From NCBI GenBank assembly GCA_000993405.1, contig LBWB01000003.1, forward strand, positions 1 through 53,735: 53,735 nucleotides of DNA, written 5' to 3'. Below are positions 1 to 30,711 of the stretch, piece after piece; position 1 is the stretch's first letter, and each line of letters opens with the position of its first letter. This DNA is from Candidatus Woesebacteria bacterium GW2011_GWB1_39_12. GTDB taxonomy: Bacteria; Patescibacteriota; Microgenomatia; UBA8517. Made by a program: the position numbers and the translations under genes. Under the pieces are notes generated by a model that ran no database searches, had not been told where the DNA came from, and saw nothing but the letters and a program-made list of their open reading frames with translations.

Positions 1-88
1 ATGATAGAAGAAAAAAACTGGCGCATGGGTGTGCCGGAAATGGTACACGGAACGCTGGTACACCGAATTTGAATAGTACGTACTCACA

Positions 89-97
89 TTTTAAATA
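89..97 (+). promoter_or_regulatory. TATA-like box upstream of long structured leader
   Basis: TTTTAAATA ~25 nt upstream of the start of the GC-rich hairpin region; preceded by TGGTACAC(G/C)GAA direct repeats at 41-52 and 57-68. Confidence 0.4.
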
Positions 98-119
98 TTC
101 ACCACGTACATTCAATGCT

Positions 120-830
120 CGTGCCGATTGCGACGGGCAAACCCTCACAGGCTCGCTAGGAATAGCGGGCGAGGGCGTGCGACTCGCCGCTCCCAGTGTT
201 GGGGGCTCGCTTAAGGCATGGACGCGTAAACCGTGAACGAGCCTAAACCCCCTTTACGGGCATGTTAGGTCAAGTATCGGGTTGTCCGAAAAAATGCGAC
301 AAACGCTTACCACGCAAAACAGCAAACACCAAGCAATCAACGAGTAAACAAATTTTAGCCAAGTCACAAAAACGTCTTAAGGCTTTGAAGCTAACTTAGG
401 ATGTCGGCTTAAGATTTCGACAAGTAACACGTTGAACGGATAGTCACACAAACACAAAACCGTGTGAAAGTCTAGCACCCGAGCCGTAAAGAGGTACATA
501 ACGCTAAGCCACGCTGAAAGGCCAAAAGCATAAGCCGTTCATGCTAACAACATTTCGGAATATTGATTTTGATTTACTCTTAGTAATTTCGTGTTTGTCT
601 GAGGCGCGTTGTCGGAATTACGTAGAAGTGTAAGCACTAATTCCCAAACACATAGAAGTCTATCCGATTGTAAAAACCCCTAATGCTTTGACTGAAACCT
701 TTTTTTGGACTTCTCTCTCGAAGTCTCAAACCTTAACGCGGTGAGAGAGTACACGGTCATAAGACACACTTTCAGCACGTTAGCGTGTTTCAATAATCTT
801 AGCCTTATCTTCTTATGACCGTGCCAATAT
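120..830 (+). ncRNA. putative large structured non-coding RNA / 5' leader
   Basis: No ORF of 60 aa or more in the track; many stems, e.g. GCTCGCTA-ggaa-TAGCGGGC, TCTTAAG 375/CTTAAGA 408, GACTTC 708/GAAGTC 720, perfect 13-bp CACGGTCATAAGA 752/TCTTATGACCGTG 811. Confidence 0.45.
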
Positions 831-858
831 GAGACAAACAAAAATGGAGAAAAGGGAA

Positions 859-957
859 ATGGATAGATGTCGGAAATGCGGTCAATCTCTTAGAGTAGAT
901 GGAACCTGTTTCAATCCGAATTGTACCGACTATTCAAAGGCGTGGGATGTAAAATGA
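859..957 (+). CDS. Cys-rich micro-protein (MDRCRKCGQSLRVDGTCFNPNC...)
   Basis: Hand translation; GGAG upstream; ATGA-coupled to next ORF. Confidence 0.55.
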   Translation: MDRCRKCGQSLRVDGTCFNPNCTDYSKAWDVK

Positions 958-1052
958 CAGAGTGCGGCCATACGGAATCATATCAACTTGTCGGATATGG
1001 CATAGACCGCCATTACGAGTGTAAGAAGTGCGGCGCATCATTCCCAGTTTGA
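954..1052 (+). CDS. zinc-ribbon micro-protein (MTECGH...ECKKCGASFPV)
   Basis: Hand translation; CxH and CxxC pairs. Confidence 0.55.
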   Translation: MTECGHTESYQLVGYGIDRHYECKKCGASFPV

Positions 1053-1101
1053 GCCTAAGTTTTTTGCTCAAACCCGAAAACGAAAAGGAGAAAAAGAAAA
1101 A

Positions 1102-1377
1102 ATGAAAGCTGTTTTTGAAAACGGGAAATACGTTAAACCCCTACCTGATGGAACCTGTAAGAACTGTGGTAAAATTCTAAGTAACCCAGAGAAGCCTAGA
1201 GCCATATTCTGCAACCGGAAATGCTTCTTTCAATATGTCGGAAAACCGAGCATTTCAACTATGGAGAAATGGAGCGATGACGGAGTAGCTAAAGCTCTTG
1301 ACGGTTGCCGCGTTGAACCTGATGGAATTTGCGCACATGGACAAAAATCTTGGCTTCTACACTTAGGGATAATTTAG
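1102..1377 (+). CDS. small zinc-binding phage-type protein
   Basis: CxxC...CxxxC plus DGCxVEPDGxCxHG motif; AGGAG RBS. Confidence 0.7.
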   Translation: MKAVFENGKYVKPLPDGTCKNCGKILSNPEKPRAIFCNRKCFFQYVGKPSISTMEKWSDDGVAKALDGCRVEPDGICAHGQKSWLLHLGII

Positions 1378-1379
1378 CC

Positions 1380-1745
1380 ATGTCAAATTCCCCAGCTGAA
1401 TTCGTGTTTAAGGCACGGTATGAAAAGCAAACCGGACACCGCTTAGTTCATGGGAACCAGAGAGAGCCAGACTGGATTGATACGCAAACAAAAGCGGCTT
1501 TTGAAATCAAGCAAATCAATTATCCGCGTACACATTTCAAAGACCAAATTCGCGTTAACGCTATGAGCATTAGCAGACACGCACAGGAAAACCCTAACGC
1601 TAAAGTTGTCCTAGTTTTCACTGATAACGTTATGCTGACTAGCGAACCGCGAACCATAGCGGAGAACAGTCAAGTCGAACCGAGCCAACAAACAGGCGAT
1701 AGGCTCACTTATCTAACCCCGCTTTCAATATTCGAACCATTCTAA
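1380..1745 (+). CDS. hypothetical protein, possible PD-(D/E)xK nuclease fold
   Basis: EPDWID...FEIK resembles PD..(D/E)xK. Confidence 0.4.
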   Translation: MSNSPAEFVFKARYEKQTGHRLVHGNQREPDWIDTQTKAAFEIKQINYPRTHFKDQIRVNAMSISRHAQENPNAKVVLVFTDNVMLTSEPRTIAENSQVEPSQQTGDRLTYLTPLSIFEPF

Positions 1746-3229
1746 AAGGAGAAATGAAAAAATGGCTAAGTACAATTCAATCTATTACGAGCATATGCAC
1801 AAAATCAAGTCTAACACGGAGTGGTTCGCACATTTGAAAATCTGTCCTAATTGCTCGGTAGAACCATAAGAGGCTAGAGAACTTTGAACGTTAGAGTTGT
1901 TAGATTAACTAGCGATGAAGTTTTTGACATTATCAAATCAGATAGAACGTGGGAACTCTGCACCTTACGGCAGTTAGCGATTAATGGTGATGACGGAATA
2001 GCAACATTAGGGGAAGATTTTCGTTGGCATTGGATACGGGGCGGAGTAAAAGCGGTGATAGATTACGCGCGTAAGAACCCGGAACGAACCGTGCGATTAG
2101 CCCTAGACCAAGGCAGTAAATGGTATGGAAAATGTAAAGCCAAAAACCTTCGTATTAAAGTATGGGAGTGAAAACTTTGGCTTACGTTGAAACGATAACG
2201 GAACTAGACACGCGCCGACTAGACGAAGAAGCATACGCACAAATGCCGACACGCCTTAAGGTGAATTACTTTCACTGTGCTAAGTGCGGGCGGATTGTTA
2301 AGCGAACCGCTAAAGGCGAACTTAAATCGTGCCCGTTCTGCACCGAGAAAAAAGATAGGTGAAAAAGTTTTTGGCTAAGTTTCAATGTGTCAAATGTGGT
2401 AAAGTTTTCGCCGATGATAAAGACTGGAACACTTCATGGAATCATCAAGAAAAAACCCCGACGCACGACGAATTTAGGGAAGTAAACCCACGATGAAACT
2501 TAAAGGTGTCGAACCATTGAACACGGTAATCAAATTACCGGACGGACGTATCGGAACTATTTGTTATAATTGGTTGGACGGTTGCGGCGGCATATGGGGG
2601 AAAAAACATTTCGACACTGAGGAACGCATGGATAATCCTGATTTACCGGAACCGGAATTCATGCTAAGGGAAAAAGAGATTGAAGGAAAACTTCGCGGAT
2701 TAGAAAACGCGGAATGTGTCGGTGAAGAATATGAGATTCTATTGTAAAGACTGTGACAGATATTTTCGTAAACAGAACTTAGCCAAACAACATCTCTTAG
2801 AAACAATGCACGAAGTCGGAAAAGTAGTAAACCGGTGAGAACTTTTGAAAGTGGAAATTAAAGGTGATATTACCACGCCCGTTCATAACCCGACAGTAAT
2901 AACCATAGAGGAAGCGGGATTAGAAAGTCTAGAAATCATAATCCACAGCGTCCCGTTTCCAAGCGAGAAATACGGACAGGTAGCAAAACCCGTAACATTA
3001 AACGTTCAGCGTGCGGAGTTTCTACGCATAAGCAAAGTCTTAGGAAGGTGAAAAGAAAATTGAACGCTGAAGAAATGGAGCATGAAATAGGCATAGCGAT
3101 AATAGCGCTAGGTAATATTAACCATAGAAACCTAAGCGAGGTTGCACAACAACAATTACGCATTGCTAAAGACGCACTAGAGAGAACGCGAGAATAGAAC
3201 GGTGAGAACTTTCTAGGTCACGGCGATAA

Positions 3230-3289
3230 GTGCCCTGATGATGAATTAGGCAAGCTCTAATTCGAAACCCTCTTTTTGAGGGTTGGCGC
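3230..3289 (+). ncRNA. type I hammerhead ribozyme
   Basis: GTGCC-CTGATGA-T-GAATTAG/CTAATTC-GAAA-CCCTC/GAGGG-TT-GGCGC: three stems, full core, GUU cleavage triplet. Confidence 0.85.
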
Positions 3290-3701
3290 AAACACAAATT
3301 AGGAGAAGGTGAAAAATGATAGATAGAAAACGAGAAGGGTATGACGCGGCATGGAAGGAACTAGTTAGATTGCTAGAACCAGTCAAAGGCGATTCACGCG
3401 CAGTTTACGAAATTAGCGAAGGCTTTGCAGAGGCACATAATGACGCGCTCGCATACGTGAATAATCCAAACGGCAGAATGGTTGAATACTACCGAAAGAG
3501 CTATCCTAACTATGCCTTTGTTTAGGGCTTTGTTTTGTACTAAACCCGAACTGAACCTTTAGGAGAAAATGGGAAAATTGAAAGAACCATACCGTTTTGT
3601 TGTTGTGGACACGCCCTATAATAGAGCGTGGTATTCTAACCTTATCGGCAGATTTTTTGCCGAACCCCCCGCATACGCACAAGTAAAGGAGATATAAGAA
3701 A

Positions 3702-4067
3702 ATGGAAAATGCTGAAGTCATTTCGAGTTATTCACGAGCGCAAGCCATAGAAGATGGTATACTCGTAGACATATCAAATACGAGTGAAGCTAAAGAGGCT
3801 GGGTTCAAAATTCCCGTAGCACTAACCCGCGCTGTGTATTCCACAATTGAAGAGGGCATAGGAATAAACGGACAAGACCGAAAAGGCAGACTATGGGACA
3901 TTTGCTTTATGGCAACACGAGCGTTTAGAAACTTTCAGGAAGACAAGCACCTAGTCCCGTTTGAAGTTCTCATGTTGGATAAAGACACTAAAATGCAAAC
4001 GCTAAAACTTTGGCTAACATTCAACGAATACGAAGGGTTCACAATAATGTACCCGGAGGATTACTAA
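3702..4067 (+). CDS. DUF6573-like protein
   Basis: YSRAQAIEDGILVD...AGFKIPVALT...GQDxxGRLWD motif typical of this mobile-element family. Confidence 0.7.
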   Translation: MENAEVISSYSRAQAIEDGILVDISNTSEAKEAGFKIPVALTRAVYSTIEEGIGINGQDRKGRLWDICFMATRAFRNFQEDKHLVPFEVLMLDKDTKMQTLKLWLTFNEYEGFTIMYPEDY

Positions 4068-5480
4068 AAATGCCTTGTTCGAAATGTGATGGGCTAGGCT
4101 GGATTTTCCGCGTTGACTGGTTCGCCTTAATGCCCTGCTCTAACTGCTCTGTGAGGCCAGAACTTTGTTGATACTGAAACCGTGGAAATGTCGCAAGTGC
4201 GGAAACGTCATACGGAACAGTCTAAGCGAGATTAACGCGGAGTTTGCGAAGCACATGGAATTTATGGATAACGTGCCGCTAGAAACTTACTTCGAGGTTC
4301 TTGACAAATGAGCAACGGTCATGTTTTCATGCGCTGTCCCGTATGCCACACGCTGATAGAGAAAACGGATAGGAATGGTTACATTGATTTTCGTAAATCC
4401 CCGCACACGATTAAAGCCGTATGCCCAGAACATACTTTAGAGTTTCACCGTTTAATGCCCGACTGGACACCAAAAACAGAACGAGCCGTTCTCGAACTAG
4501 AAGCACAATATAAGAGATGAAAGAACTTTGAGAAAGATTCTAGCACGTCATAGGTGGGTTGCGGATGCTACGATAACGGAGAGCTACGACACGAATGAGG
4601 AATTTCGGGTTACACATAGGCGTTTCACAGCGACGGTTGACGGCTACCGTAACTTTAGAATCTATGACGGCGAACTTGAAGATGGATTAGTGAAACGGAT
4701 AATCGCGAAGGTTGAATCAATAAAAACGCGGATACGAAGCGGCGACGAAACAATATTACACGAAAACACATTATTGGAGAACTGAGAACTTTGCGAAAGT
4801 CTAACGTAATTCTATCAGAGCAAATACTCTCTAAAGTTTTGAATGGCATAAACACGGCAATATCATTTTGCGACCAGAACGAAGATAGCTACATCTATAA
4901 TTGTTTGCTTCGAGCGCGAGAGGAAATTGAACACGCAACAAAAGCATTATGAACGGTGAGAACTTTTGTTGATGGAATCGGTTTGGGTTTCATGGTTAGT
5001 GCATGTACCCTACTTGCTACCTCAAGAAATTGAGACTGATTATGGAGAGGATTGAGAACTTTGCCTAGAAAGAAGTTTTACCGTATCAGCGTAACTAATG
5101 GACATGAAGAAATCGCCGTGTACGAGTTAGGCAATTACTCGAAGAAACAAGCGTTAGCCGACTTCCTGAGAACATACTTACACATAAGCGAAGACCCGGA
5201 ATGAGGGAGAACCCTTTGCATAGCTGTCCTGATTGTGGGAACCCGACCACGGATAACTTTGAACTCTGCGATTACTGCGAAATAGATTTACTACAGGAAA
5301 TGTGCGATGTGCAAGGGGTATGAGAACTTTTGAAGCTCATCATTGAGCGTTTTCAATGTTTCCAACATGGAACCGTGTTTGAATCTGAGCGTGAGTATGA
5401 ACAGCATTTAATGGAAGCACACCACAAACCAAACATGAAACTATACGCATAGAAAACGTTTCCTAGTCGCTTAGTAATGA

Positions 5481-5539
5481 GCGCCCTTGAAGATGACTGA
5501 AGCAGAACTTTCAGTCGAAACCCCGTTTGGGGTTGGCGC
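5481..5539 (+). ncRNA. type I hammerhead ribozyme (variant core)
   Basis: GCGCC-CTTGAAGA-T-GACTGAA/TTCAGTC-GAAA-CCCC/GGGG-TT-GGCGC; same architecture as the 3230 copy with different stem sequences; one extra U in the core. Confidence 0.7.
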
Positions 5540-5666
5540 ATAAACACGCCACAACAAATTAGGAGAAAAGAAACAAGATGAAATTGAATCTGGATGGCTT
5601 AGAGGAACTATTCTCTATTGGAGAGTTTCGTAAGCGTAAGCGGTTTTGGGAGAGGTGAAAGAAACT

Positions 5667-6029
5667 TTGAGCAAGAAAAGAAAGAAGCGGCTGAGTATCT
5701 ATGCGATTCGGCATAGTGGAAACACTGTCGGATACGTGCAAGCACAGAACCAGAAAGAAGCATTAGACATGGCTAGTGTGGCTCTCGATAACGGGATTTA
5801 TGACGATGATGACAACGGTGGAATGACCGTTGACTTCGAATTCTCACACGTAGCTGGAGAACAAGGCGCGATTAAAACAAGAGTAAACAAATATGATGAA
5901 ACCTTCAAGGGGCACGCAAATATTTTCTACGAAGACGACATCAGAAATCTAGTAGCCGACAACGTTATGCAGTTCACCACAGCCAAACGCACGAAACTAA
6001 AGGAACTACCCGAAGAGGAAGAGGACTAG
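5667..6029 (+). CDS. hypothetical acidic protein
   Basis: ORF with TTG start in GAAACTTTG motif variant. Confidence 0.6.
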   Translation: MSKKRKKRLSIYAIRHSGNTVGYVQAQNQKEALDMASVALDNGIYDDDDNGGMTVDFEFSHVAGEQGAIKTRVNKYDETFKGHANIFYEDDIRNLVADNVMQFTTAKRTKLKELPEEEED

Positions 6030-6035
6030 AGAACT

Positions 6036-6500
6036 TTGAAAGAAGAAATCACACAAATACGAACTACTAAGCAGCTGAAAGACTTAGCGAAGACTCTGAA
6101 AGTTGGGGCTGACTGGCATGAACCCGACGAACAAGAAGTTGAAGTAAAAGTCGAAGGCTCACACCTAGACAATGCATTCATGGAACTTACAACTGAGAGA
6201 TGGCCGAACCGCGAATTTAACGTAATAATTCTTCAAGATAAGAAACCTGTCGCGTGGATTAATCTCGCAAACCTATTCGCTATGGCTGTCGATACGTGGC
6301 CTGATACCGGAGAACCTAAAGGAACTTTCACTGGTCATGAAGTGAACATTCGAAGCATACGCGAAACATACCTAAACCGAATTGAACGTAACATTGAGGA
6401 CGCGGAGAATAGCCTAACACACGCGAAAGAAGCTGTAACAACAACCCGCGAAGAACTACGCAAACACCCAAACGCGCCGGAAGGATTCGTGAGGGAGTAA
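6036..6500 (+). CDS. hypothetical protein
   Basis: 154 aa ORF bounded by two motif copies. Confidence 0.7.
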   Translation: MKEEITQIRTTKQLKDLAKTLKVGADWHEPDEQEVEVKVEGSHLDNAFMELTTERWPNREFNVIILQDKKPVAWINLANLFAMAVDTWPDTGEPKGTFTGHEVNIRSIRETYLNRIERNIEDAENSLTHAKEAVTTTREELRKHPNAPEGFVRE

Positions 6501-6871
6501 GAGAACTTTGACTAGGTTCATTGTGAATCTACGGGTTGAAGTTATCGCGCGCAATTCGGAAGAGGCTAAGGCGAAAGCCATAATCCCATACGCGTACGGA
6601 TTTCCCGACATGTCAGCATATGTGACAGACGCAAAACTCAGGAGAGACTAAGAACTTTGTGGAAGATTAACCATACGAGTTTCGACAGTGGATTCACAAC
6701 CTTAGACTATCCGCGTAACCGCGAAGAAGCATTAGAAGCTTGGGAATTTTGGAAGGCGAAAGGATTCAGTAATTGTCTATTGACGTTGTACCGACCATGT
6801 GGAAGAAAAGTAAGAGACTACTACTCAGAAACGAAGAAAGAAACTGACTATGAAGAGGATGATTGAGAACT

Positions 6872-7756
6872 TTGTTTGAATGTAAAGTGGATGCGGAGCA
6901 GTTCAAGAACCTAATCAGTATGCCAACCGCGCTAATCGAAGAATGTGACATCACGCTCGGAACTTCAGGCATACGCGTGAACACGATGGACCCGGCTCAC
7001 GTCGCGCTTTGTCGGATTGAGTTAGCGAAAAGCATGTTCGAAGAATACGCGTGTGATAAGGATACGAAAATCCGGCTTGCGATAAACAGTAAGGGAACTT
7101 ATGGGAACGGTTCAAGCCTAGTCGGGCAATTCCCGAATAAAATCAAAGCCTCGCTGATGGACATTAAGTTACGTGGTGAAACCGAATTTGAGAAATCTCG
7201 ACTGGAACTTTCATTTCTCGGTAACCTTCGCAAGAACGCTAAAATCCCACTACTCGAAGCAAGCGAAGAGGAACCACCATACCCGAAAATTCGGTTCAAC
7301 GCTAACGTGAAAATCGTGTTAGCAGACTTACTCGAAGTCTTCAAGGACATGGAGAAGCATGGTGACAATTTCCGGTTAACCGCAACACGAGAAGAATTCA
7401 AAATCGAAACCGTCACGGAATTAACGGAACAAGTTTACCCGTTCGAGAAAGGCTCAGACGTAATGCTAGAGTTAGATGTACGCGAACCGAGTAAGGCTAC
7501 GTTCAACTTGAAGTATATGCTCGACATATTGAAGCAACTGAAAACCGCTTTTGAAATTGTCACACTTGAATGGTCAACGAACTTACCACTAAAAATCTCA
7601 GGTGAAAACATTCAAGGGGCAACCGTAGAATATTTCTTGGCTCCAAGAATCGAAGACCATGACGAACCAATCGAACGTAAACCCGAACCTAAACCTGAAA
7701 CAGAACTTATCCAAGAAGAAGATAAAATCGTATGCACGAATATCGTAACCAACTAG
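6872..7756 (+). CDS. pcna: DNA sliding clamp PCNA
   Basis: MDPAHVAL, FEEY, F(N)LKYMLDI, PLKI and YFLAPR motifs; acidic C-terminal extension; TTG start in the motif. Confidence 0.92.
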   Translation: MFECKVDAEQFKNLISMPTALIEECDITLGTSGIRVNTMDPAHVALCRIELAKSMFEEYACDKDTKIRLAINSKGTYGNGSSLVGQFPNKIKASLMDIKLRGETEFEKSRLELSFLGNLRKNAKIPLLEASEEEPPYPKIRFNANVKIVLADLLEVFKDMEKHGDNFRLTATREEFKIETVTELTEQVYPFEKGSDVMLELDVREPSKATFNLKYMLDILKQLKTAFEIVTLEWSTNLPLKISGENIQGATVEYFLAPRIEDHDEPIERKPEPKPETELIQEEDKIVCTNIVTN

Positions 7757-10700
7757 AGAAAAAAAGGAGAACGGAACTTTATGGTTGAATGGTTGTGGAA
7801 TCCAGAACGTCGAGCATTAATTCAAGTCGGCGTTGTCGGGTACAATTGTGTGTGCAGCGTACAGCCTAAACGAATCTGTGCCTACCATAACAAACTCAAA
7901 GAACTATTAACGGAGTGAAAACGAAATGAAGCAACACAAACTAGATTGCCCAGAATTGCATATCGGACATCAAGTTAGACAAAACCCCCCCGTCCTTATG
8001 CGATACTGTCTCGATTGCAAGGTCTTTCTCCGGGTCTTCCCATGTTGAGGTAAAAGAACTTTGGATAGAACTGAAATCGAGCGTTACGCTCTGAACGAAG
8101 TGAAGAAATATTTCGGTAGCGAAATTGACGGTAAGGAACTCTTACACAGACTAGACTACTACAAACGACAATACGTCTACCACACATAGAGAGGTGAAAC
8201 GAAAAATGAGCATGGATATTCGTGCAGGTATGTTTCGAGAAATTACTTTTCAACCACCAGAGACATTCAAGATTAAATTCGATAATGTACAGTTAGCAGA
8301 CGGAAAACGCGTGCCTCAAATCAAACTCTATTTCCGTGCAGACCAAATGTTTGCCTTTGACCAGTTCTGGGAACAATCCAAACAAGAATATGTCGAATAC
8401 AAGAAAAAGAATGAGGACTCCAAAAATGAGTGAATACGTCGCGCCGAAATGTTCTCCATGCCCGTATTGCCGCGAGCAAATTCTTGACGGCTGGGAAGCC
8501 ATACATGTTCGCATGATTCACACGAAACCGTTCACCGTAATCAAATGTAATGGCTGTGGAGAATACATCAAAGTCCAATATGGAGAAAACAACATTTGCG
8601 GGAAATGCGGAACAAGACTAATGCTACAATGAGGTTCGAAATATTTGTGTGAGGGTTGCATTAGAGCAGGGAAAACGCTGAATTGCGCGTGTAAACGCTG
8701 TGTGACGGAAGCAGTTATTCCAGCAGGTTCACCGCCAAGCGAAAGCGCGTATTGTTACGAATGTGAACACACCGTAGAAGGATGAGAAGAAGCGGGTGAG
8801 AACTTTTTGAATACTCAGGTTTTCGTGCATAAGTTGGTTGATGAGGTACGGGATTTCTGTGGTACGGTTAGTATTCTCCCCACACGAAAAGAACAGAACA
8901 CGGAATTTGATATTCTCCATTCAACACTCAGACAGCAAGTTAACATACTGTTCGCTAATGAAATTCACGACGCGTTGATTGATTTAGTGGAATGGAAAGA
9001 AGAAACGGAGTGAAAACTTTGCCTCTCGTAATTTGCTCGTTTTGCCTTTATGTTGGACAGGGAAGTGACTTGCAGGAAATGTGGCGTGACGCGGAACGGC
9101 ATGAAAAGAAATGCAAAAACAAAGAGGAATGATGAAAGTTGCCGAAATCTGAATTTCTAAAAACCTATCGCAAAGGTAAGGTTTCATCTGTGAAGTTGAA
9201 GAAGCTAGGAAACGCGGAACTTTTCCAAGTCTGGGAAGACGAGAAAATGTTGGGTTGGCTGTGGGCTCCTAAATCCCGCAAAATGATTCAAGTCTTCGAA
9301 ATATCCACGCCCGATAATTGCTCACAGTCACGACTCCGGCGATTAATGAAACTCATGGGACAGAACGCAACTACCCCGTTAATTCCCGTAGACGCTGACA
9401 CAGGCAAAGCCTACTTCGAATTGAAGTGAGAACTTTATGCAAGCGATAGTTCGTGGAACTCGGTTTAGGGATATTACGTTTCAACCGAATGGCTTCAACG
9501 GTAAACCCGCCTTCAGAATCAAAGTTGACGATTGTGCAATTCTAACCGATAAGGGTTCGCGGAAACATGAACAGGTCTTAGTGATTATTCCCGCTTTCGG
9601 AAACGAGGATGCGTTAACGAACCTGCTAGGCGAAGCCGTACTCCAATACCGCATGTGGATAAAAGAACACGAGAGGTGAGAACTTTTATGGTGAGTGAGT
9701 TTCAGCGGATTTATTTTCTTGCCCGTAAGGTTGGGGAAGCCTCCGTTATTATTCGGAATTTTCAAGAAGCCACAAGCACGCGCAATAAGGTTCCTGATTA
9801 TGCATCATTACTTGCCACCCGCAAACTCGCAGGCGACTGGTTGCGAAGCATGAAAGCGCGTCAGAAACGACTACAGAAAGAGAAGTGAGGTAACGGAACT
9901 TTGATGAAGAACAAACAGTCATTGGGTTGGAAAGTTCATACTCGTGGTTTGTTAGAAGAGATTTCGAGCAATTTCAACGCTCCGCAAATCCTAATCCCAA
10001 TCAAGATTTTAGATAACTTATTGCGGCAAGTTGCAAAGAGAGCCACCGAAATTAACGACCTAAAACTAAACGCCTTAATGATTCGGTTAACCCTCTATTC
10101 CATCGCAGACCCCGACAGCCCAGACTATAATCCTAAAGCAATTTCTAAAATTCTTGGAGAGTAAACGGAACTTTGTTAAAGGTTCATGGTGTTCCTGTGC
10201 GTGGGTTGTTGTGTGCTGCGTCTGCGGGTGCACTCGGCATGATTGGGTTACAAATGCTACTTGTTACGATTAGCCCCACTGAGTACATCATGTGGCGTGA
10301 AACACCAGCCGTCGCCGCGCTGGAAACCGTCATGCTATTAGGGTTAGCCGTATTCCAATTCCGAGAAGCCCTACAAAGAAGAAGATGAACAGAACTTTGA
10401 CAGAGAAACCGTATCATATTGGCGGTACATGCGGCGAGCTTGGACATGTGTACCCGAAAGACTCCTGTAAATGTTTGAATTGTGGATATGTGATTTCAGA
10501 AGAGCTTTTTGATAGAATGATGATAAGAGGGTATTGAGAACTTTGACTAAGTTGCGCGTGTATGATTCTGGTTCAAGTGTTGCTCGGAAAGTGTTAGAGG
10601 ATAAGCGTTTGTGCATTGCAGAAGTTTTGGATTATTCCGGTTGGCATTACCTTCAATGTAGACGCAAACGTGGTTACGGACCGAACGGTGAATACTGCAA

Positions 10701-10894
10701 GCAGCACGCGTTAATCATAGCGCAAGGGCGACATGTGAATGTACCATTCAAGGAGAGAGAACTTTGAGTAAGTGTGTGGATTGTGGGATGGAGCTTGGAG
10801 AGTTTTTTGTTCATTATCCAAGTATTCTTGACTTGTCAGATGAAGCATTGATAACAAAGGTAATTCGATGGAATTGTATGGAGTTAATCAAACT

Positions 10895-11617
10895 TTGAGT
10901 GAAACACAAATCGAAAAAGTAAGCAGACAATGTTTCGGAACTATCGTGACTAGTCGGCTGTACACTAGGGAACGGTTCGTCGTGGAATCTGTGAAGCTCG
11001 GTTGCAACCGTAGTATTCCTGCGGATGTTTTGAGCAAAATCAAATGGGCTGAACCCGTTGTGGTTGCGGATTGGCAGAGCCAAGAAACAGAACTTTACGG
11101 GAATCATCGACGCTATGTTAAACCCAAAGACATATTGGCACGTATGGATGAAACGAAACATTGTGAAGTTTATGCGCCTAAAGGGTGCTTGATTCCATTT
11201 GGATATTTCACTGTTGACGCGGTTGTTCCTCATGGATTTACAGATGATGCGCGAGAGCGATTCAATAAAACTCTGGACATTGTGCAATTCATAGATGATA
11301 CACCAACTCGTGTGGTGAGGGCTTGCGGCTCATATTTGATGTCCGGCGGTTGCGTGGTTCGAGACACCATAGAGCAAATCGTTGACAAAGCGGAGAATAT
11401 TGCGAAGCTACACAGTCAAAAATTGAAATGGTTCGTGTCCGGTCGGTTTCACGAGATTAACACTACTCCGGTTGAAGGCGTAAAATATGGTAGGGGCTTC
11501 TATAAGCTGTCGTTAACAATCCCGAAGGAAATTGATGGAACAATTCAAACGGTTAGATTTCTAGGAGAGTACAGTAAGCGGAAGTATACGAGCGAGAAAC
11601 TTGACGATGTGATGTGA
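10895..11617 (+). CDS. hypothetical protein
   Basis: Long ORF; probable TTG start in AAACTTTG (track start 10868). Confidence 0.65.
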   Translation: MSETQIEKVSRQCFGTIVTSRLYTRERFVVESVKLGCNRSIPADVLSKIKWAEPVVVADWQSQETELYGNHRRYVKPKDILARMDETKHCEVYAPKGCLIPFGYFTVDAVVPHGFTDDARERFNKTLDIVQFIDDTPTRVVRACGSYLMSGGCVVRDTIEQIVDKAENIAKLHSQKLKWFVSGRFHEINTTPVEGVKYGRGFYKLSLTIPKEIDGTIQTVRFLGEYSKRKYTSEKLDDVM

Positions 11618-12661
11618 AGTATGACTAAGGGAACTGAAATGCAAGCGTTCGCTCAGGGGTTACATGGAAATCGCTTGATTCTCCATGGTCTATCAAGATT
11701 TGACGTTAAATGCGATGACCCGAAGCCTCACACTAGACGGTACGAAAAGATAGCAGGGCTTGGATGGATTTGCTCGGATACCCCCAATAAGATTTGGGAT
11801 GAGGATAGCGTTAAGCTCGCTTGGTACATGGCTGACGTTGGAAAAGGTTTACTCTCAGAAATTCGCACTAAAGCAGGTAAGAAAGCAATTGGTCGCGGAT
11901 AGTAAATGAGGATACTCTGCCGCTGTTGTTGGTCATGGAAGCGAGTTAAGCGGAGAAGTGAAGAAGCACAAACTCTACTCTGCACAGGCTGTTTACGGAC
12001 GCGGAAACGGAACATTCAACAACGAAACATATTACGTAAGAAATTACGGGGGCGAAGAAAATGATTATGAGTAAAGAGGAAGCGGATGCGTGGCATGAAA
12101 TTCTCAAAGCCCAAGTATTCCTGCATAAACATTTCAAACATCATAAATCGGCTTACGCGAGCGATATTGCTAATGCCCTACAAATCCCGTATGAGCGCGC
12201 ACGAGCCATAACTGATTTTCTTGTCAAATACAAATTCCTATCAACGGTCAAGAAAACAGTCCGTAAGAAACTTCGTAAGAGAACTTTACGGTAGAATGGT
12301 GGGGTTTGCAGAGGCTCATACCGGCGACGGATGAGAGGCATGTTTTGGGGTTTGCAAATCCCTTTTCTAGCCTTCCTACCTCTGCCCTCAAAACCATACG
12401 AAAGAGATGAGAACTTTGATTGAGATTGAAGTTAAAGAACTCGACCACCCTGATAAGAAGCTCCGTCTTTCAAAGCTCATCATCGAGTACGATTGTGACG
12501 GCATCGCCTTCAGAGGTGAAGCGGCTGATGGTTCAACGGTTTTTGTTCAAGCACGAAGCGACCGAGCCGCATCACATGATAATCCTGAGCCATTCCGCGT
12601 AGTTGGAGAAATCCGAAATCCAAACGGGAAAGTCATTGTGAGAACAAGATAATGGGAAACT

Positions 12662-13504
12662 TTGAAAGTGAGAGTGTTGCGGATAATTCCTGTTTTCGTA
12701 GTGGCCCTGTTTATGTTGGGTGGTTTACCTCTAGGCGGGGCTCAGCCGAATCAACTAGATAAGGGAATAATGATTGACGGCGATGTGTTACTAGGCAATC
12801 TTCCCAGACCCAGCTTCACGGAACTTTCAGCGAACAGGTTCACGTTAGTCGGGTTGGGTGTGTTAAACTACTACAATGAAAGTCAACTAGAGAAATTTGT
12901 TCCACTCATTCAGGAACTTCATGATATGGATATGCGGGTGTTTACGATGCTTTACTCCAACTACACGACAACTCTGAAGTATGCTGAGTTAGCCGCTCAA
13001 TTGGGATTTGACGTGATAGAGATTGATGAGCCGTTCGCGCATTCGTTTACTGAAAACCAGATTGTTAGCGTGGTAGAGAACGTCACTGCAATGTACCCAC
13101 AGGTACGTTTCATTATTACGGATTGGTCGCTGCCACACCTGATAACACTTTACGCGTTAACCGCAGAAATGCGAAATGTGGATATTGCAGTAGACAACTA
13201 TGACAGTTTACAATACGTTCAATGGAACAGTGACCTAGCCCGCAAATATGGCAAGCAACCGTACACGTGGCTCATGTTCATAGGGAACCGACACTCATCA
13301 CGGAACTTACAGGCATGGTTGAATGCGACACAAGCCACGAACTCAAACCTCTTACTATTCCTAATCGACGCCGCTCAGAAATGGCAAAGCCAATGGTCCC
13401 TCCTAAGCCCCGCTACCCCAATCCCAGAAATCCCGACTAGCATAATTCCAATAACCGTGATGGCACTCCTACTAACATTAGTGGTTAGAAAGAAGGACTC
13501 TTGA
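12662..13504 (+). CDS. secreted/surface protein, possible glycoside-hydrolase-like barrel, with PEF-CTERM-like anchor
   Basis: Signal peptide; GFDVIEIDEP; C-terminal PIPEIP + hydrophobic helix + RKK. Confidence 0.6.
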   Translation: MKVRVLRIIPVFVVALFMLGGLPLGGAQPNQLDKGIMIDGDVLLGNLPRPSFTELSANRFTLVGLGVLNYYNESQLEKFVPLIQELHDMDMRVFTMLYSNYTTTLKYAELAAQLGFDVIEIDEPFAHSFTENQIVSVVENVTAMYPQVRFIITDWSLPHLITLYALTAEMRNVDIAVDNYDSLQYVQWNSDLARKYGKQPYTWLMFIGNRHSSRNLQAWLNATQATNSNLLLFLIDAAQKWQSQWSLLSPATPIPEIPTSIIPITVMALLLTLVVRKKDS

Positions 13505-14615
13505 ATGAGACTGCGAAGGAACTTTCTGGTTGGGCTGGCAACCCTATTCCGGGCGTTGCACATTATTACGAAGAACGATTACGAGAACTTTCGACTCAAT
13601 TTGGCGTTGGCTGAAGCCGCACGGAAACACAACCTGAAAATGGTAAGCGTACCTCTAGATGGAGAATAAGAGAACTTTGCCGACTAAATCCTGCAATGAA
13701 TGTAACATTGGATTTGATTCTGAACCGTGGAAATGCGTCTATCATCAACGCCTAAACTTCTGCTCTGAGAATTGTCTACATGTGCATGAAGCAAGGAACA
13801 ACTGTAAGGCACGTTTAGTACCATGAACCAAGGAGAGAGAACTTTGAGTCGAAAGCCTACGGAAGAACAGTTAGAGCGTTGGGCTAAGATGGATAAACAC
13901 ATTGCGCATAGGAACAAAATATTGAATCTTGCGGCCCTTATCTTCGCCCTGTTAGCCCTCGTCATTTCAACATACGCCCTATTTCATCCGTGAAGAGTGT
14001 GAGAACTTTGGGTAACACGACAATTTGGGATTGGTGGCCGCTGAATCAAATTCTAGCACTTGTTCTATCTGTAGGGCTTGAGACAGGTTTCTTCGAACCG
14101 TTGAATGTATGCTCGATGCTAATGGTTAGGGTTGATGCTGCCTGCTGGTTAGATGTAGGCTTTTTGAACTGGGGGTTTCGCATAATCTTTTGGCTTATCG
14201 GTTTTCTGCTCTTGTGGATTCCGGTTTCAATCCTGCTTTGCATGTTGCCTGTGGATTATCAGCAACTTTACAGAAAGAAAAAGCCGAGTGAGAACTTTGA
14301 GGAATCTTGCTTCACCTGTTAACCGTGTTATCGGTATGGGGTTACTGTTCTTCGCGGGTTGGGATAGCAAAGTGTACCTGTACCCGAGCTTGGTTCCCCT
14401 CGCGCTGGTGCCAATAGGATTCTACATGTTCGCCGGAGCATGGCTAATCTTAAGAAAGTGAGGTGAAAGAACGTTGGATGATATAACACAGACCATAATT
14501 CAATGCTGCCTTCCTTCCATAACAATTACGCTTTGGATAATCATGTTAATTCTAATGATAAAGTGAAAAAATTTCCCTAAAAAATAGGGAGGGAGAGTTG
14601 AAGCCCTAGAACCGT

Positions 14616-14801
14616 TTATACCACGGGTTCGTCCCGTTTTCCGCGTACGCGCTCCCTAAGACCCTTCACGCGGCTTGCGGCTTTGCTGCCCCCGTTCCGC
14701 ACGGTTTCCCTCGCCTTCGGGTTCGTTGCCAGCACCGCGCCGACCGCACCAACAATAATACCCGCTAGAACGCTGAGTCCTGTCTTCAGGTTACCATTCA
14801 A
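14616..14801 (-). CDS. small membrane-anchored basic protein
   Basis: N-terminal TM helix, basic tail, GAGGTGA RBS on the minus strand. Confidence 0.65.
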   Translation of the reverse strand: MNGNLKTGLSVLAGIIVGAVGAVLATNPKARETVRNGGSKAASRVKGLRERVRGKRDEPVV

Positions 14802-15306
14802 TTTTCACACTCACCTCACATTAATTGATATGTGAACCACCAAATAGCCACCCCTATTTATATGCAATTCATGAAACCGATATATGGCGAAAACCGACTA
14901 TTAATTGAAATTATGGTGATGTATGAAATGAAATCGACCATTGAAAAATGGATAGGTGAGAATTTTTATGAATAAATTCTACTATGGACTAATCCTAATT
15001 GGGCTCACGGCTTTCGCAGCTTTTACTTATCTTCCATCATTACATGGTAGCGGGAACGCATTAGTTTTCGATAAACAAACACTCAGATTCTATGTCCAAC
15101 CATATTCATACTCGGAATCAATAACCCACCGATTAATCGGGGGCGGGTATTGTAGTATACATTGGGGGGTGAGACATAATCTAACTGGCCTAGCAGACAT
15201 GTACCTATACCCTAATGGGCCGTCAACCGCTTTCCCAACTCCAACAGATAATATAACCGCTTTCCCCCAGTCACTCATCAATAATTGTGATAGCAATGCC
15301 ACGTAG

Positions 15307-15750
15307 CCCGTTAATGCCACCAACGGAACTTAAACTCGGAACCGAAAACCGCAGCAAACGGAACTTTACAGGCACCAAACACCCCTTAACCCTGAACGAA
15401 ACTAGTCACACAAACACCACCTAAAACGCGCTCATTCCTCACCGCGCTAGATGTTACTCCATCTCAATCCACAACCCTCCAATTTTCAGAAATCCTGCCG
15501 CGCGCACACATAAACCATGCAACTAATACGAGGGTGTAATGGCGCGGATGGATACTATACGTTAATACGTTAACATAGTTATCCGGTCATATGTTAGATT
15601 TCTTTTATTGCATGGAGATTGTGTGATTGATGAGTCGAAAGGCTTTTATTGCATAACACAGAGTCATGCAAGATGAAAGTATTCCATATGGTTTAGTAAG
15701 CGTTATATAGCGTGATATTGCATCATTGATGATGTTAAGTTGATGCGTCA
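15307..15750. other. candidate replication origin / control region
   Basis: Non-coding, directly upstream of cdc6; CTTTTATTGCAT at 15602 and 15643, TATTGCAT at 15716, tandem TACGTTAA. Confidence 0.45.
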
Positions 15751-16878
15751 TTGCCGTCCACCATTCAAATTAATTCAGATGTTTTCGACGAAACCTACAT
15801 TCCCCCAGACCCCATTGTTCAACGAAAAGAACTCAGCCAAGTTGAGGAACTTTTAGAGCAAGACCGTCACGTCTACCTATTCGCTAAACCCGGCACAGGA
15901 AAAACATTTCTAGCTAAACAAATTATGGCAAAAAACCCAAACCATGTCTACATTCAATTTCTCAATTCGGTTCCAGAATCATTATCTAATTTCCTCAGCG
16001 TTACAAGTCCATTCGTAGCCACTCGAACAAACATCCTCATGGGGATGCTGGAAAAGAGACTTCGTGATAAGTCAATGCACCAGCCAATTCTAATCGTTCT
16101 TGACGACCTACAAGAATTACGGCGCGCAAAGGACTTCTACACTTTTATCGGCAATTTGTTTAGAAGACTAACGGCAAAGCCGAGCTTAGGACTACCGAAA
16201 ATTAAAAACCGCATACTCATGATTTCTCAAGAACCATACGTGAAAATGTCAGGTGAAGTTGGTAACGGGTTCGCCTCAAAAGCAGGGTCAGAGTCCAGAG
16301 GGCAATTCGCTCATGAATCCCTAATACCATACGACCAAGAACAAATCAAAAAGATTCTCACAGAGCGGCTCAAACTAGCCTTTCCGAAAGGGGTGAAAAT
16401 AGATTATGAAGAGGGCGCGTTAAACTTCTTCACGTTAGAAACACTTCGCCATGATTCTGATATGCGTCTGGCACTTAGATTATTGCGGCTTTGGTTGCAA
16501 AGCGGACATTTGACTAGTGAGAACGCGCGAGAGAGTTGGACGATTGAAAAGAAAGATTACTGGGCACATTACATTCGCGCACTTCACCGGCATCAAGCCG
16601 CCCTCGCACATCTTATCTGCCAACAAGAGCGGCCAATCACAATGCCGAAACTCGACGACCTATACGCAACGTTCTGCAAACAGCATGGTTGCGCGAGATT
16701 AGATTACACGCAGGTCACAAGGCTTCTTAGAGAACTGAAAGACCCAATCGGACTCATTGACATGGTTGAACTGAAACAGCGAGGGCGGCCATACGCAGTT
16801 TCCCTGAGAGCAAGCGTAACGCGTGAAAATGTGATTGAAGCAACAAGCGCAATCGATTGGGACAACTACTTAGAATGA
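15751..16878 (+). CDS. cdc6: Cdc6/Orc1-like AAA+ replication initiator
   Basis: VFDETYIP..R, Walker A KPGTGKT, Walker B LIVLDD, PYxxEQIKKILTER, DMRxAL, C-terminal winged helix. Confidence 0.85.
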   Translation: MPSTIQINSDVFDETYIPPDPIVQRKELSQVEELLEQDRHVYLFAKPGTGKTFLAKQIMAKNPNHVYIQFLNSVPESLSNFLSVTSPFVATRTNILMGMLEKRLRDKSMHQPILIVLDDLQELRRAKDFYTFIGNLFRRLTAKPSLGLPKIKNRILMISQEPYVKMSGEVGNGFASKAGSESRGQFAHESLIPYDQEQIKKILTERLKLAFPKGVKIDYEEGALNFFTLETLRHDSDMRLALRLLRLWLQSGHLTSENARESWTIEKKDYWAHYIRALHRHQAALAHLICQQERPITMPKLDDLYATFCKQHGCARLDYTQVTRLLRELKDPIGLIDMVELKQRGRPYAVSLRASVTRENVIEATSAIDWDNYLE

Positions 16879-16919
16879 ACGATTTGTTGCATGATGATTG
16901 TGTGAGAGGCAAGGAACTT

Positions 16920-17462
16920 ATGAGCGGGAACAAGAAAGATGAACAGCTAGCCGGAAGAAAGCAGTTGCTAACTCTTAATCAGACTCCAATCGAAATCTTT
17001 GAAAGGCTGTTAGACGATCTCAAACAACTGCATTATGATGCTGCGCAACTTCATTTGAAACTATCTTCCACCGAAGAATATTATGACTCATCCGGCACTA
17101 AACTTGGTGACCGCTTCTTACACACTGAGATGGCGAACCTACATAGAGAAATCATTCACCTCCAAGACCAAGACCGAGCGAACGAAGAAGGCAAGCAGTC
17201 AGACGTTAAACTTGACATTGACGTAATCATGACCGGGAAACCAGTCAGTATGCGCGATAAAATTGATGCGGCTTTTGAAATGTTAGATGAATTAGCGAAA
17301 CCTACTGGGATGGTTGAAGAAACCGCCCTATGCCAAGCCCTTGTACATAACAACGGCATGATGTATGAGGAAGCACACCATATCGTTGAAATTCTGATTA
17401 AGAACGGGGTCATCTGGTCCCCAAAAGAACATTGGGTTCAACGGTTGAATCCGAAGAAGTGA
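16920..17462 (+). CDS. protein with stand-alone MCM C-terminal winged-helix domain
   Basis: KLDIDVIMTGKPVSMRDKID...LIKNGVIWSP aligns with MCM KMDIDVIMSGTPQSLREKID...LIKNGKLYEP; alternative start 16875. Confidence 0.8.
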   Translation: MSGNKKDEQLAGRKQLLTLNQTPIEIFERLLDDLKQLHYDAAQLHLKLSSTEEYYDSSGTKLGDRFLHTEMANLHREIIHLQDQDRANEEGKQSDVKLDIDVIMTGKPVSMRDKIDAAFEMLDELAKPTGMVEETALCQALVHNNGMMYEEAHHIVEILIKNGVIWSPKEHWVQRLNPKK

Positions 17463-17833
17463 AGCTCTTGCAACGCAACCCGAACATTGAGTGTTCAAAC
17501 TGGGGTGCTCGACAATCTAAATGGGCTTCACAAACAATTATGTCTCATAAGCACTCAGGTTTCACTGTTAACATTAAGCAATTTGAGCTCGCGGAATTAG
17601 CGATGAGGACAACTGATTGCGGTATTTGCGGACGAACGTTGAACTGGTATAATCGCGGAAGCGGAGCGAAAGTAGACAGCCCAACATTAGATAGAACTAA
17701 CAACGAGAAAATCATGACGATGGAGAACACTAAAATCGTTTGTCGATTCTGCAACACATCTAAAGGGCACCTTTCACACGCAGATTTTCTTTCATACTGC
17801 ACGTTAATCGCTAAGCGCATGGGAGCCTCTTAG
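17459..17833 (+). CDS. HNH / His-Me finger endonuclease
   Basis: CGICG...SPTLDR..N...N.KIVCRFCNTSKG. Confidence 0.75.
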   Translation: MKLLQRNPNIECSNWGARQSKWASQTIMSHKHSGFTVNIKQFELAELAMRTTDCGICGRTLNWYNRGSGAKVDSPTLDRTNNEKIMTMENTKIVCRFCNTSKGHLSHADFLSYCTLIAKRMGAS

Positions 17834-18088
17834 CCGTGTGCAAAGATTGTGTTGGAGTGGTGAAACGTTTCGAGGGTGGCCGATTAATTATTGAGAAGCG
17901 GGTTTGCTTGTGTGAATGCCTGATTCTCTACTCTAACAACCAATGTGAGAAATGCTTGTGTACAGTTAAGGTTGAGGAGGAGAACGAGAACTGGGAGGGA
18001 CTATTCAGGGACCGTGCCGGTAACCCCGTACCCTTCGAACATGTGTGGACCGGGCAAGGCCAGCTACAGGAATAGTTGAGGATTACGA

Positions 18089-28099: not shown

Positions 28100-28155
28100 G
28101 GATTATCTGAGTAATAGGTTCGCAATAAGTTTGATAAGAGTGTATCGCTATACGT

Positions 28156-28169
28156 ATCATCATGACGAT
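28156..28169. promoter_or_regulatory. palindromic operator-like site ATCATCATGACGAT
   Basis: Related copies at 43411, 44250, 46178, 53145, all intergenic. Confidence 0.65.
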
Positions 28170-30567: not shown

Positions 30568-30711
30568 GGAATTGAAATGAGTACGGTTTGGGATTATGAA
30601 TGTGGGAAATGCTACTTCAGGACCAACGACCAGAACGAGGCTTTCGAACACCGAGCAACCACGGGGCACACGTTCAGTAAAATTCCACCAAACAAATGGG
30701 GCATGTAAATT

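Follow-up and report, generated by a model that had tools for sequence, protein, structure and literature searches.

The 53,735-nucleotide stretch analysed in this work (the window; contig LBWB01000003.1 of Candidatus Woesebacteria bacterium GW2011_GWB1_39_12) carries a ten-letter sequence that ends in TTG, a rare start codon, and opens about 35 unrelated small genes. Judged by its genes, the contig is that of an archaeal virus, mis-binned in a bacterial metagenome-assembled genome (MAG), and the sequence most likely serves to pass ribosomes on from gene to gene, as a signal of a kind so far described only in some mycobacterial phages, here in an archaeal virus. The anatomy of the gene junctions at which it stands gives about an even chance that the motif acts at the RNA level, as a termination-reinitiation signal for the internal cistrons of long early operons.

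A start-linked repeat of the early module

GAACTTTG was present 31 times in the window (27 copies on the + strand and 4 on the - strand) in comparison to 3.02 expected (sd 1.73, largest 8), and none of 100 shuffles reached this number. GAGAACTTT occurs in 26 copies on the + strand and in one on the - strand. The start codon of an open reading frame (ORF) of at least 28 amino acids (aa) is supplied or abutted by 22 of the 26 exact copies, those not found at starts being located at 3204, 12279, 13583 and 40395. Twenty-two of the 26 lie within 1.9-14.3 kb, with the others at 25.3-26.0 kb and 40.4 kb.

The original prediction listed 38 starts at which the motif should be found, 33 of them within 1884-14297 and the remaining ones at 25279, 25678, 26041, 37612 and 37818. 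(G)AGAACTTT or a close variant, together with a start codon (35 TTG and 3 ATG) and an ORF of 28-294 aa, was confirmed at all 38 positions, the variants at 5216 and 10895 being weak. Comparison of the 38 products with each other by blastp (E <= 1e-2) gave no non-self matches, so the description of the genes as unrelated holds as well. The claim of more than 30 consecutive genes stood as far as the number of starts is concerned, whereas the word consecutive applies only loosely: between 1.8 and 14.6 kb the motif is used by 32 of 52 genes, 5 have stop/start overlaps and 15 have other contexts, mostly a Shine-Dalgarno (SD) sequence plus ATG, in a count that rests on a heuristic gene model which itself rewards the motif. 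The motif is confined to this early module and to small clusters at 25.3-26.0 kb and 37.6-37.8 kb, and is missing at the replication and terminase-like genes checked.

In the logo of 37 aligned sites AACTTT is invariant but was itself the alignment anchor. G was found at +6 in 31 of the 37 sites and at -1 in 30, and A at -2 in 29; there is also a preference for G at -3, for T or A at -4 and for purines, mainly G, at -8 and -10, with little information elsewhere. The register of the start codon is not fixed, GAGAACTTTTG, GAGAACTTTATG and GAGAACTTTTATG being present too; the start codon is found 0-3 nucleotides (nt) beyond the motif, and ATG starts directly follow GAGAACTTT(T). GAGAACTT(T) is a separate module sitting 0-3 nt ahead of the start.

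At 20 of the 38 sites the start codon of the motif has no in-frame alternative ahead of it, and at 1884, 4528, 6036, 6657 and 9437 the use of the next in-frame start would cost 41-57 codons, about one- to two-thirds of the ORF. The PCNA read from the TTG at 6872 starts with MFECKV and can be aligned, residue by residue, with cellular PCNAs, the N-termini of which are of the MFKASV type; a relative of the virus, described below, retains TTG TTT at its PCNA start though its motif is one T short. In the startless copies at 3204, 5503, 12279 and 13583 the final G is replaced, giving TTC or TTA. Since the G is lost where no ORF follows, it is conserved as part of a start codon.

Anatomy of the junctions

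The gap between the upstream stop and the start measures 5 nt at 10 sites, 6-8 nt at 12, 9-12 nt at 4 and 14-24 nt at 6; stop and start overlap at 5 of the 38 sites and a single site has no upstream ORF. The motif had been said to contain or abut the previous stop often, which agrees with the gap of 5-8 nt in 22 of 38 cases and the overlap in 5. In the 5-nt class the TGA forms the first part of TGAGAACTTTG. The geometry agrees with that of termination-reinitiation, with a same-strand stop near the start (gap of 5-12 nt in 26 of 38) or overlapping it. Each junction is built of an SD-like GGAG, GAGG or GGTGA, often holding the upstream TGA, followed by the fixed GAACU spacer and UUG, which at a few junctions is replaced by an AUG 1-3 nt further on. 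Mini-ORFs at 4517-4531 (4 codons) and 37598-37615 (5 codons) run from an ATGA overlap with the upstream stop to a TGA overlapping the TTG of the motif.

Elsewhere in the early region, internal junctions show either an overlap of the ATGA or GTGA type or GGTGA with an A-rich spacer. At 3316 and 5578, where a gene opens after each of the two long intergenic gaps, AGGAG, an A-rich spacer and ATG are found and the motif is missing. From 5578 to 14566 the largest gap between predicted genes does not exceed 24 nt. The whole + strand contains 36 runs of at least five T in comparison to 101 runs of at least five A, as would be consistent with oligo-T terminators of the archaeal type being avoided in the sense strand. 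A second start context, (A/G)GGAAT(T/C)GAA or GGGATTTGAA directly before ATG, was seen in five middle genes on the + strand (28516-28529, 28935-28948, 30194-30207, 30566-30579 and 37587-37600), the second codon of which is AGT in three, AGC in one and AAC in one.

A promoter belonging to each gene was rejected, the information being at most 0.25 bit from -60 to -15 and rising to 0.52 bit only at -14, the position of the SD-like G. An upstream TATA box with BRE was rejected too, as one of 37 sites has a TATA-like hexamer, where random draws gave 0.52. Six junction RNAs gave folding z-scores of +1.34, +0.36, +0.79, +1.19, -0.09 and +1.40 relative to shuffles, which speaks against a hairpin or an attC-like fold at the junctions.

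The upstream GGAG, GAGG or GGTGA fits the definition of an SD sequence and pairs with the 16S rRNA 3' end, which reads GGAUCACCUCCU in four Bathyarchaeia genomes. The conserved GAACU (-5 to -1) does not fit that definition and has no complementarity to this tail in the four 16S rRNAs, though the rRNA of the true host may differ; the argument of the original prediction that SD pairing explains GGTGA/GGAG and not GAACT is thus upheld. Pairing with other parts of the host ribosome was rejected because only AAAGUUC and GUUCUC have matches in the same four 16S rRNAs, which is the chance level. A G:U-tolerant scan of the contig for an antisense partner returned 7 full-length + strand sites, all coding and none in the non-coding parts, and no Rfam family reached its gathering score in the window.

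In five Bathyarchaeia genomes of 2.4-3.1 Mb the 10-mer was counted 12, 16, 10, 11 and 21 times and the reversed control 4, 9, 13, 14 and 6 times, the window holding 17 10-mers in 54 kb; 3 of the 32 Bathyarchaeia sites listed look like starts. A two-copy pattern was matched in 20 of 401 genomes of the Bathyarchaeia class, the matches to the reversed control, which were not summed, being similarly scattered. None of 32 GGTGA spacers in 400 kb of one Bathyarchaeia genome reads GAACT, a weak negative given the crude and biased picking of starts, and the other contigs of the MAG have no motif at gene starts. Within the genomes searched, the motif does not qualify as a start signal of the host: neither in the Bathyarchaeia stand-ins nor in the rest of the MAG was it as common at gene starts as in the window.

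Some copies without a start codon stand at the ends of early operons. A startless motif followed by CTAG is found at 3204 in the window and at 874 and 5088 in L043 and L042, respectively, two contigs of the relative, and there is a degenerate copy at 5455 of the window. In three of these operon-end cases an element of roughly 60 nt follows, beyond which lie the SD and ATG of the next operon. In the window its two copies, both on the + strand and between early operons, occupy 3230-3289 (next to the AGGAG and ATG of the first cistron at 3316) and 5481-5539 (next to those of the first cistron at 5578). These two sequences and the one at about 905-965 of L043 gave 19 predicted pairs, and compensatory changes occur in 5 of these. 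The fold consists of an outer GCGCC/GGCGC helix around a covarying variable hairpin flanked by GAUGA/CGA, and of an AACCCC..GGGGUU hairpin. No Rfam family was found for the element; the match to the C/D-box RNA sR5 was weak (13.7 bits, E 0.35) and was not accepted. As modelled, the element could be a terminator, a regulatory element or a small RNA. The position of these copies suggests that GAGAACTTT may also work as a boundary or binding site.

The individual sites, all on the + strand, are as follows. The motif runs into a TTG start at 1877-1886 (ORF 1884-2171, 95 aa, with no in-frame start upstream). The exact motif with TTG is found at 4784-4793 (53 aa, TGA stop 5 nt ahead of the start), 5054-5063 (47 aa), 6029-6038 (154 aa, in-frame TAG two codons upstream), 6501-6510 (47 aa), 6865-6874 (the 294-aa PCNA), 10536-10545 (74 aa), 10757-10766 (44 aa, the TGA of the upstream ORF overlapping the TTG), 12409-12418 (78 aa, an in-frame ATG 9 nt upstream overlapping the upstream stop), 13670-13679 (49 aa), 13837-13846 (49 aa, within a 21-mer identical to that at 10749-10769), 14001-14010 (104 aa) and 14290-14299 (54 aa), and at the outlying positions 25272-25281 (28 aa), 25671-25680 (54 aa) and 26034-26043 (216 aa).

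Variants followed by TTG comprise GAAAACTTTG at 2170-2179 (61 aa, with the TGA stop of the preceding gene inside) and 9012-9021 (37 aa); GAGAACTTTTG at 2837-2847 (68 aa, TTG shifted by one T), 4958-4968 (29 aa) and 5322-5332 (40 aa); CAGAACTTTG at 4158-4167 (48 aa, within the 3' end of the preceding ORF) and 10390-10399 (46 aa); AAGAACTTTG at 4521-4530 (85 aa, preceded by the 4-codon mini-ORF), 6650-6659 (69 aa, TAA stop 5 nt ahead of the start), 8054-8063 (42 aa) and, as an outlier, 37811-37820 (136 aa, an in-frame upstream ATG being possible); AGAAACTTTG at 5660-5669 (120 aa, preceded by GGTGA); GAGAACTTTTTG at 8798-8809 (68 aa); CGGAACTTTG at 9894-9903 (87 aa) and 10166-10175 (a 71-aa membrane protein); GGAAACTTTG at 12655-12664 (280 aa); and the outlier AGGAACTTTG at 37605-37614 (52 aa, preceded by the 5-codon mini-ORF, which has its own SD and ATG). 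ATG starts follow GGAACTTT at 7771-7783 (45 aa), GAGAACTTT at 9428-9439 (80 aa) and GAGAACTTTT at 9678-9690 (66 aa).

The two weak variants are that at 5205-5218, which has two extra C before the TTG of a 35-aa zinc ribbon protein (in-frame alternative ATG at 5201) and whose orthologue in L043 has a perfect motif, and TCAAACTTTG (AATCAAACTTTG) with the TTG of a 240-aa ORF at 10888-10897 (in-frame alternative ATG at 10868). Two further variants lie beyond the list of 38, GAGAATTTTT with ATG at 14958-14970 (112 aa) and AAGAATTTTG with TTG at 25495-25504 (56 aa). The startless copies are those at 3204-3216 (behind the final gene of an early operon, with TTC and then TAG), CAGAACTTTC at 5503-5512 within the intergenic element, GAGAACTTTA at 12279-12288 in the 3' end of ORF 12061-12294 and GAGAACTTTC at 13583-13592 within ORF 13505-13669.

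The viral contig and its relatives

The window is the entire contig C3 of a 1.5-Mb assembly of 56 contigs, the small-subunit rRNA of which scores best as bacterial, has large insertions and ends with a normal anti-SD. C3 has a G+C content of 0.453, the other contigs of the MAG lying at about 0.36-0.44 (about 0.38 for the rest), and its GAACTTTG density is 5.8 per 10 kb, against 0-3.8, mostly below 1, in the other contigs. Among the products of C3 are an archaeal MCM helicase that carries a LAGLIDADG intein (18089-21214, + strand), Orc1/Cdc6, RadA and PCNA, a protein with a weak match to the terminase large subunit, an IS200/IS605 TnpA/TnpB pair and a PTH2 peptidyl-tRNA hydrolase. The archaeal MCM, Cdc6, RadA and PCNA together with the terminase-like protein mark C3 as an archaeal virus, in line with the archaeal origin assumed in the original prediction, and the bacterial 16S rRNA of the MAG is therefore irrelevant to pairing with the motif.

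Over its N-terminal 424 residues the MCM has 56-72 % identity to proteins of 17 Bathyarchaeia/Bathyarchaeota MAG contigs (most 59-72 %), 63 % to that of one contig filed under Methylomirabilota and 61 % to that of one unclassified archaeon; the remaining archaeal contigs found, mostly of haloarchaea, gave 30-47 % over comparable stretches. The closest cellular PCNAs, Methanomassiliicoccales included, are 38-40 % identical and those of Bathyarchaeota/Bathyarchaeia 31-33 %. As far as its proteins tell, the virus is probably tailed and Bathyarchaeia-infecting. No terminal repeat was found in C3, and as an identical 294-aa PCNA is recorded on a contig of 55,215 nt, the window may lack a small part of the genome. 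Four groundwater DNA runs from two studies, two of which may be the source of the contig, gave an identical sequence over positions 1-20000, with no indels and no strain variation. One X1 contig from the DNA runs joins 5591 to 2438 with 27 other letters between them; no joints were listed.

Relatives carrying the motif were obtained from the second of two PCNA scans of metagenomes, which included alignment, the first having given nothing. L043 and L042 are two overlapping contigs of one metagenome and their PCNA is 61 % identical to that of the window. In the 1.8 kb upstream of this PCNA 9 of 10 predicted genes start with the motif, most of them unrelated to window genes; besides PCNA only the zinc-ribbon gene and the intergenic element match the window there, and downstream only the small membrane protein and one further segment do so. 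Nucleotide identity of the shared segments is 70-79 %, and since all of them are diverged to about 70 % there is no sign of recent exchange. The motif is held constant within a narrow lineage while the neighbouring genes turn over.

Three IMG/VR relatives of the terminase (40-52 % identity) have 1, 5 and 1 copies of AGAACTTT and no motif array. The presence of the motif in L042/L043 and the lack of an array in relatives sharing only the terminase make it a trait of a narrow lineage. In IMG/VR no relatives turned up with PCNA or Cdc6 as the query, and the two- and three-copy motif patterns searched there gave 30 and 27 stretches, all enriched ones being tandem repeats inside genes. Among GenBank phages a single uncultured Caudoviricetes record was found, with 36 % identity to the terminase-like protein.

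Two database PCNAs, P0002 and P0003, have been called from an internal ATG, lack the conserved N-terminus and are at least 14 residues short; P0003 is 61 % identical to the window PCNA, as is the PCNA of L042/L043, though they were not shown to be the same protein. Since the PCNA of L042/L043 starts at a motif-linked TTG, gene callers truncate such genes. The lesson for annotation is twofold: callers averse to TTG have shortened the PCNA of relatives, and the viral contig itself was filed in a bacterial MAG.

Several other features of the + strand were noticed. The PTH2 gene (30205-30567; PF01981, E 2.5e-33) is a translation-related gene amid very short ORFs and mini-ORFs; any link of a viral PTH2 to peptidyl-tRNA drop-off is speculation. 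A complete IS200/IS605-type element occupies 46303-47741, in which the TnpA Y1 transposase gene (PF01797, E 2.2e-39) overlaps tnpB, whose product has a Cas12f1-like TNB domain and matches a PHROG transposase. A free-standing LAGLIDADG_2 endonuclease gene is located at 27063-27821; 27840-28169, directly downstream, is also conserved in L042 but has a low-complexity translation, and so may be non-coding. The right end (47831-53733) encodes a glycosyltransferase, a transglutaminase-like plus methyltransferase protein, a radical SAM/SPASM protein and a B12-binding radical SAM protein, an auxiliary cluster that is unusual for a virus or possibly host-derived DNA.

Interpretation of the motif and known systems

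A motif that is strand-specific, tied to starts, placed 5-8 nt after a stop, unstructured and without a promoter fits a role in (re)initiation, and this half of what the original prediction had put forward agrees with the junction anatomy; the other half, integron-like shuffling, found no support. In the proposed mechanism ribosomes finishing one small early gene would start the next gene at the motif. The first cistron of an early operon would be entered through AGGAG, the A-rich spacer and ATG, and the internal cistrons through 4-nt overlaps or the motif. As UUG would be poor for de novo initiation, the internal cistrons would depend on termination-reinitiation, and since losses would compound along tens of cistrons, selection could keep one optimal junction sequence. 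Recognition of GAACU might fall to the small subunit or the initiation factors of the host, in the E-site/exit-channel region, or else to a trans-acting factor, and could allow module-wide control of the early genes.

A more far-reaching version, which we put forward only tentatively and hold to be rather less than probable, is that of a viral translation grammar, in which GAACU and UUG, recognised by a factor of the virus or by the small subunit of its host, would ensure very efficient passage through 10-40 tiny cistrons and block switching of the early programme, while the motif would also mark a boundary ahead of a structured RNA at the ends of operons. If true, archaea would have a dedicated signal for reinitiation such as has not been described for them, and the motif would be the first tractable clue to the start-associated sequences (SAS) of mycobacteriophages.

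A number of observations weigh against the reinitiation signal. An in-frame upstream start, often an NTG 9 nt upstream overlapping the TGA, exists at 18 of the 38 sites, so TTG need not be the start there. Five T5 runs lie within 5578-14566, inside the presumed 9-kb operon, and a single long transcript is accordingly not assured; no RNA run was among the listed sequencing-run holders of the contig. The only 7-mer complement in Bathyarchaeia 16S rRNA, AAAGUUC (at about position 594 in E. coli numbering), is located inside a helix. The Bathyarchaeia genomes are stand-ins picked by MCM similarity, from which the true host may differ. The orthologous junctions keep the motif in two of three cases, and the membrane protein gene at 10173 has its counterpart at 2822 of L042 behind a motif-less ATG, which makes the motif dispensable for a given gene. 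Finally, the startless motif is kept at operon ends, in three copies over two genomes, before the structured RNA element; a pure start signal does not predict such copies, for which a boundary, processing or binding site would be a better fit.

The last point leads to the possibility of a trans-acting factor that has the motif as its RNA target and marks the unit boundaries of the early transcripts, either a viral or host RNA-binding repressor or activator or a sequence-specific endoribonuclease, which would switch early translation as a block or cut the polycistronic RNA. This explanation overlaps with the preferred one and, though unlikely, is its main rival. The restriction of the motif to the early module and small clusters is in its favour, as are the startless copies ahead of the structured element in two genomes, the conserved spacer without complementarity to the 16S tail and a motif sequence that is the same in two viruses with PCNAs merely 61 % identical; the excerpts of the cluster K SAS paper show its authors leaving this option open for the mycobacteriophage repeat (PMC3203893). 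No candidate factor emerged, however, from ten early ORFs compared with Pfam (E <= 0.1) and ten with PHROGs (E <= 0.01), in which DUF6573 was above the cut-off and the matches were otherwise weak; the genes seen to be common to the relative are those of PCNA, the zinc ribbon and the membrane protein, and the non-coding parts of the contig offer no antisense partner. Should the site be read as DNA, it could be an operator for a viral elongation-blocking regulator resembling the cluster A stoperators, the use of TTG being secondary. Many short asymmetric sites of one orientation with respect to transcription, at gene junctions of one module and with startless copies among them, would be expected of such an operator, and the excerpted text of the cluster K paper contrasts SAS with stoperators (PMC3203893). 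We regard it as improbable, as a start codon forms part of, or directly adjoins, 22 of the 26 exact copies, the final G is given up precisely at copies with no ORF behind them and elsewhere an ATG stands within 1-3 nt, and neither a repressor-like gene nor an integrase was found among 49 ORFs scanned.

A recombination linker used for the exchange of single-gene cassettes between related viruses would explain why the relative has the motif before mostly different small genes, why its similarity to the window begins at the PCNA motif with unrelated genes upstream and why the motif also bounds a non-coding intergenic element; RadA recombinase is encoded as well. Homologous exchange would, however, have very little to work on in ten bases, selection for intact genes would by itself place breakpoints at gene boundaries, and the start codon at the end of the motif is left unexplained. 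The integron-like cassettes of the original prediction find no support, given the lack of an attC-type hairpin or inverted repeat and of a tyrosine or serine recombinase among the 49 ORFs scanned in Pfam, which took in few of the ORFs below 90 aa and yielded just the IS200/IS605 TnpA/TnpB pair and RadA. The shared segments, about 70-79 % identical, show no recently exchanged patches, and the four DNA runs hold the same sequence without indels. There is little probability in our view that the motif serves such exchange. An artefact of chance, composition, tandem repeats or recently duplicated genes has next to no probability: most IMG/VR contigs with multi-copy motif patterns do owe them to tandem repeats inside genes, but here no shuffle in 100 reached the observed number, the spacing is irregular, the 38 ORFs are non-paralogous and the motif recurs in a diverged relative, and this explanation was ruled out.

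No description of such a motif was found in the literature on archaeal and Bathyarchaeia viruses (main texts, supplements being outside the search), and a full-text search for the 10-mer returned only primers. In the part of PMC10848311 that was available the term 'start codon' is absent and the sole 'motif' is a glycosylation motif. The combination of a spacer and a non-AUG start at about 35 junctions, conserved and not found in genomes of the host lineage, indicates that something beyond SD pairing selects these starts. Archaeal translation initiation is understood from a few model species, and to our knowledge almost nothing is known of it in archaeal viruses. If the motif promotes reinitiation, it would be a compact natural part for stringing many genes on one archaeal mRNA and a test case for the retention of post-termination small subunits; if a factor reads it, it would offer access to the temporal control of an uncultured group of viruses.

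Junction sequences that make the expression machinery stop and restart are familiar from RNA viruses. The gene-start and gene-end signals of Mononegavirales and the transcription-regulating sequences of nidoviruses are short conserved junction signals acting on viral RNA polymerases, and the calicivirus TURBS tethers the small subunit near a stop/start overlap by means of eukaryotic 18S rRNA. The present motif differs in belonging to an archaeal DNA virus and in having no pairing partner that could be found. Integron attC sites, imperfect palindromes of 57-141 bp at the 3' ends of cassettes that need an adjacent tyrosine recombinase, similarly occur once per promoterless one-gene cassette in a same-strand array; here the motif is linear, 10 nt long and without a fold, and no tyrosine recombinase was found in the 49 ORFs scanned. 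Cluster A stoperators are 13-bp asymmetric DNA sites, present in many copies of one orientation with respect to transcription in short intergenic spaces and bound by the phage repressor. They have no fixed relation to starts, unlike the 22 of 26 exact copies described above. The epsilon enhancer, for which pairing with 16S rRNA has been proposed, is a phage-borne non-SD sequence that raises translation, and the core AACUUU that it has in common with the present motif may be due to chance. It lies upstream of the SD in one leader of a bacterial phage, whereas here the core is placed between SD and start at many internal cistrons. The sequence of this enhancer in the T7 gene 10 leader is given as UUAACUUUAA in the excerpt of PMC9590205.

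Termination-reinitiation in Haloferax volcanii and E. coli requires overlaps or very short gaps and is modulated by the sequences around the SD, according to the available sections of Huber et al. 2023 (PMC10666635) and Huber et al. 2019 (PMC6728339). The same-strand gene pairs, the few nt between stop and start and the SD in the end of the upstream gene are common to those systems and to the window. The coupling described in these sections involves 4-nt and 1-nt overlaps and no shared sequence beyond the SD; the fixed 5-nt spacer and UUG, in contrast, recur at tens of junctions of this one genome, where coupling is predicted from the sequence.

The closest functional analogue, as the original prediction had proposed, is the SAS of cluster K mycobacteriophages. 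The excerpts of Pope et al. 2011 (PMC3203893) describe a 13-bp asymmetric repeat located 3-7 bp upstream of starts in 11-19 copies per genome, composed of an SD core and of conserved positions unable to pair with 16S rRNA, found hardly at all in the host genome and kept in related phages; a role in translation initiation is presumed there and unproven. The window motif shares with the SAS so described the asymmetry and single orientation, the many copies (about 35 here), the proximity to starts of non-structural genes of different families, the upstream stop that can fall inside, the SD core plus non-pairing positions, the conservation in a related virus and the rarity in genomes of the host lineage, here the stand-ins. 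It differs in that the SAS consensus GGGATAGGAGCCC is unrelated in sequence, the virus is archaeal and its host is not a mycobacterium, the SAS of the excerpts prefer ATG (80 of 93) while here the motif runs into the start, TTG in 35 of 38 cases, the spacer is best conserved and not the SD core, and no extended inverted-repeat form (ESAS) was seen. By these likenesses the motif is a functional analogue of the SAS and not a member of that sequence family.

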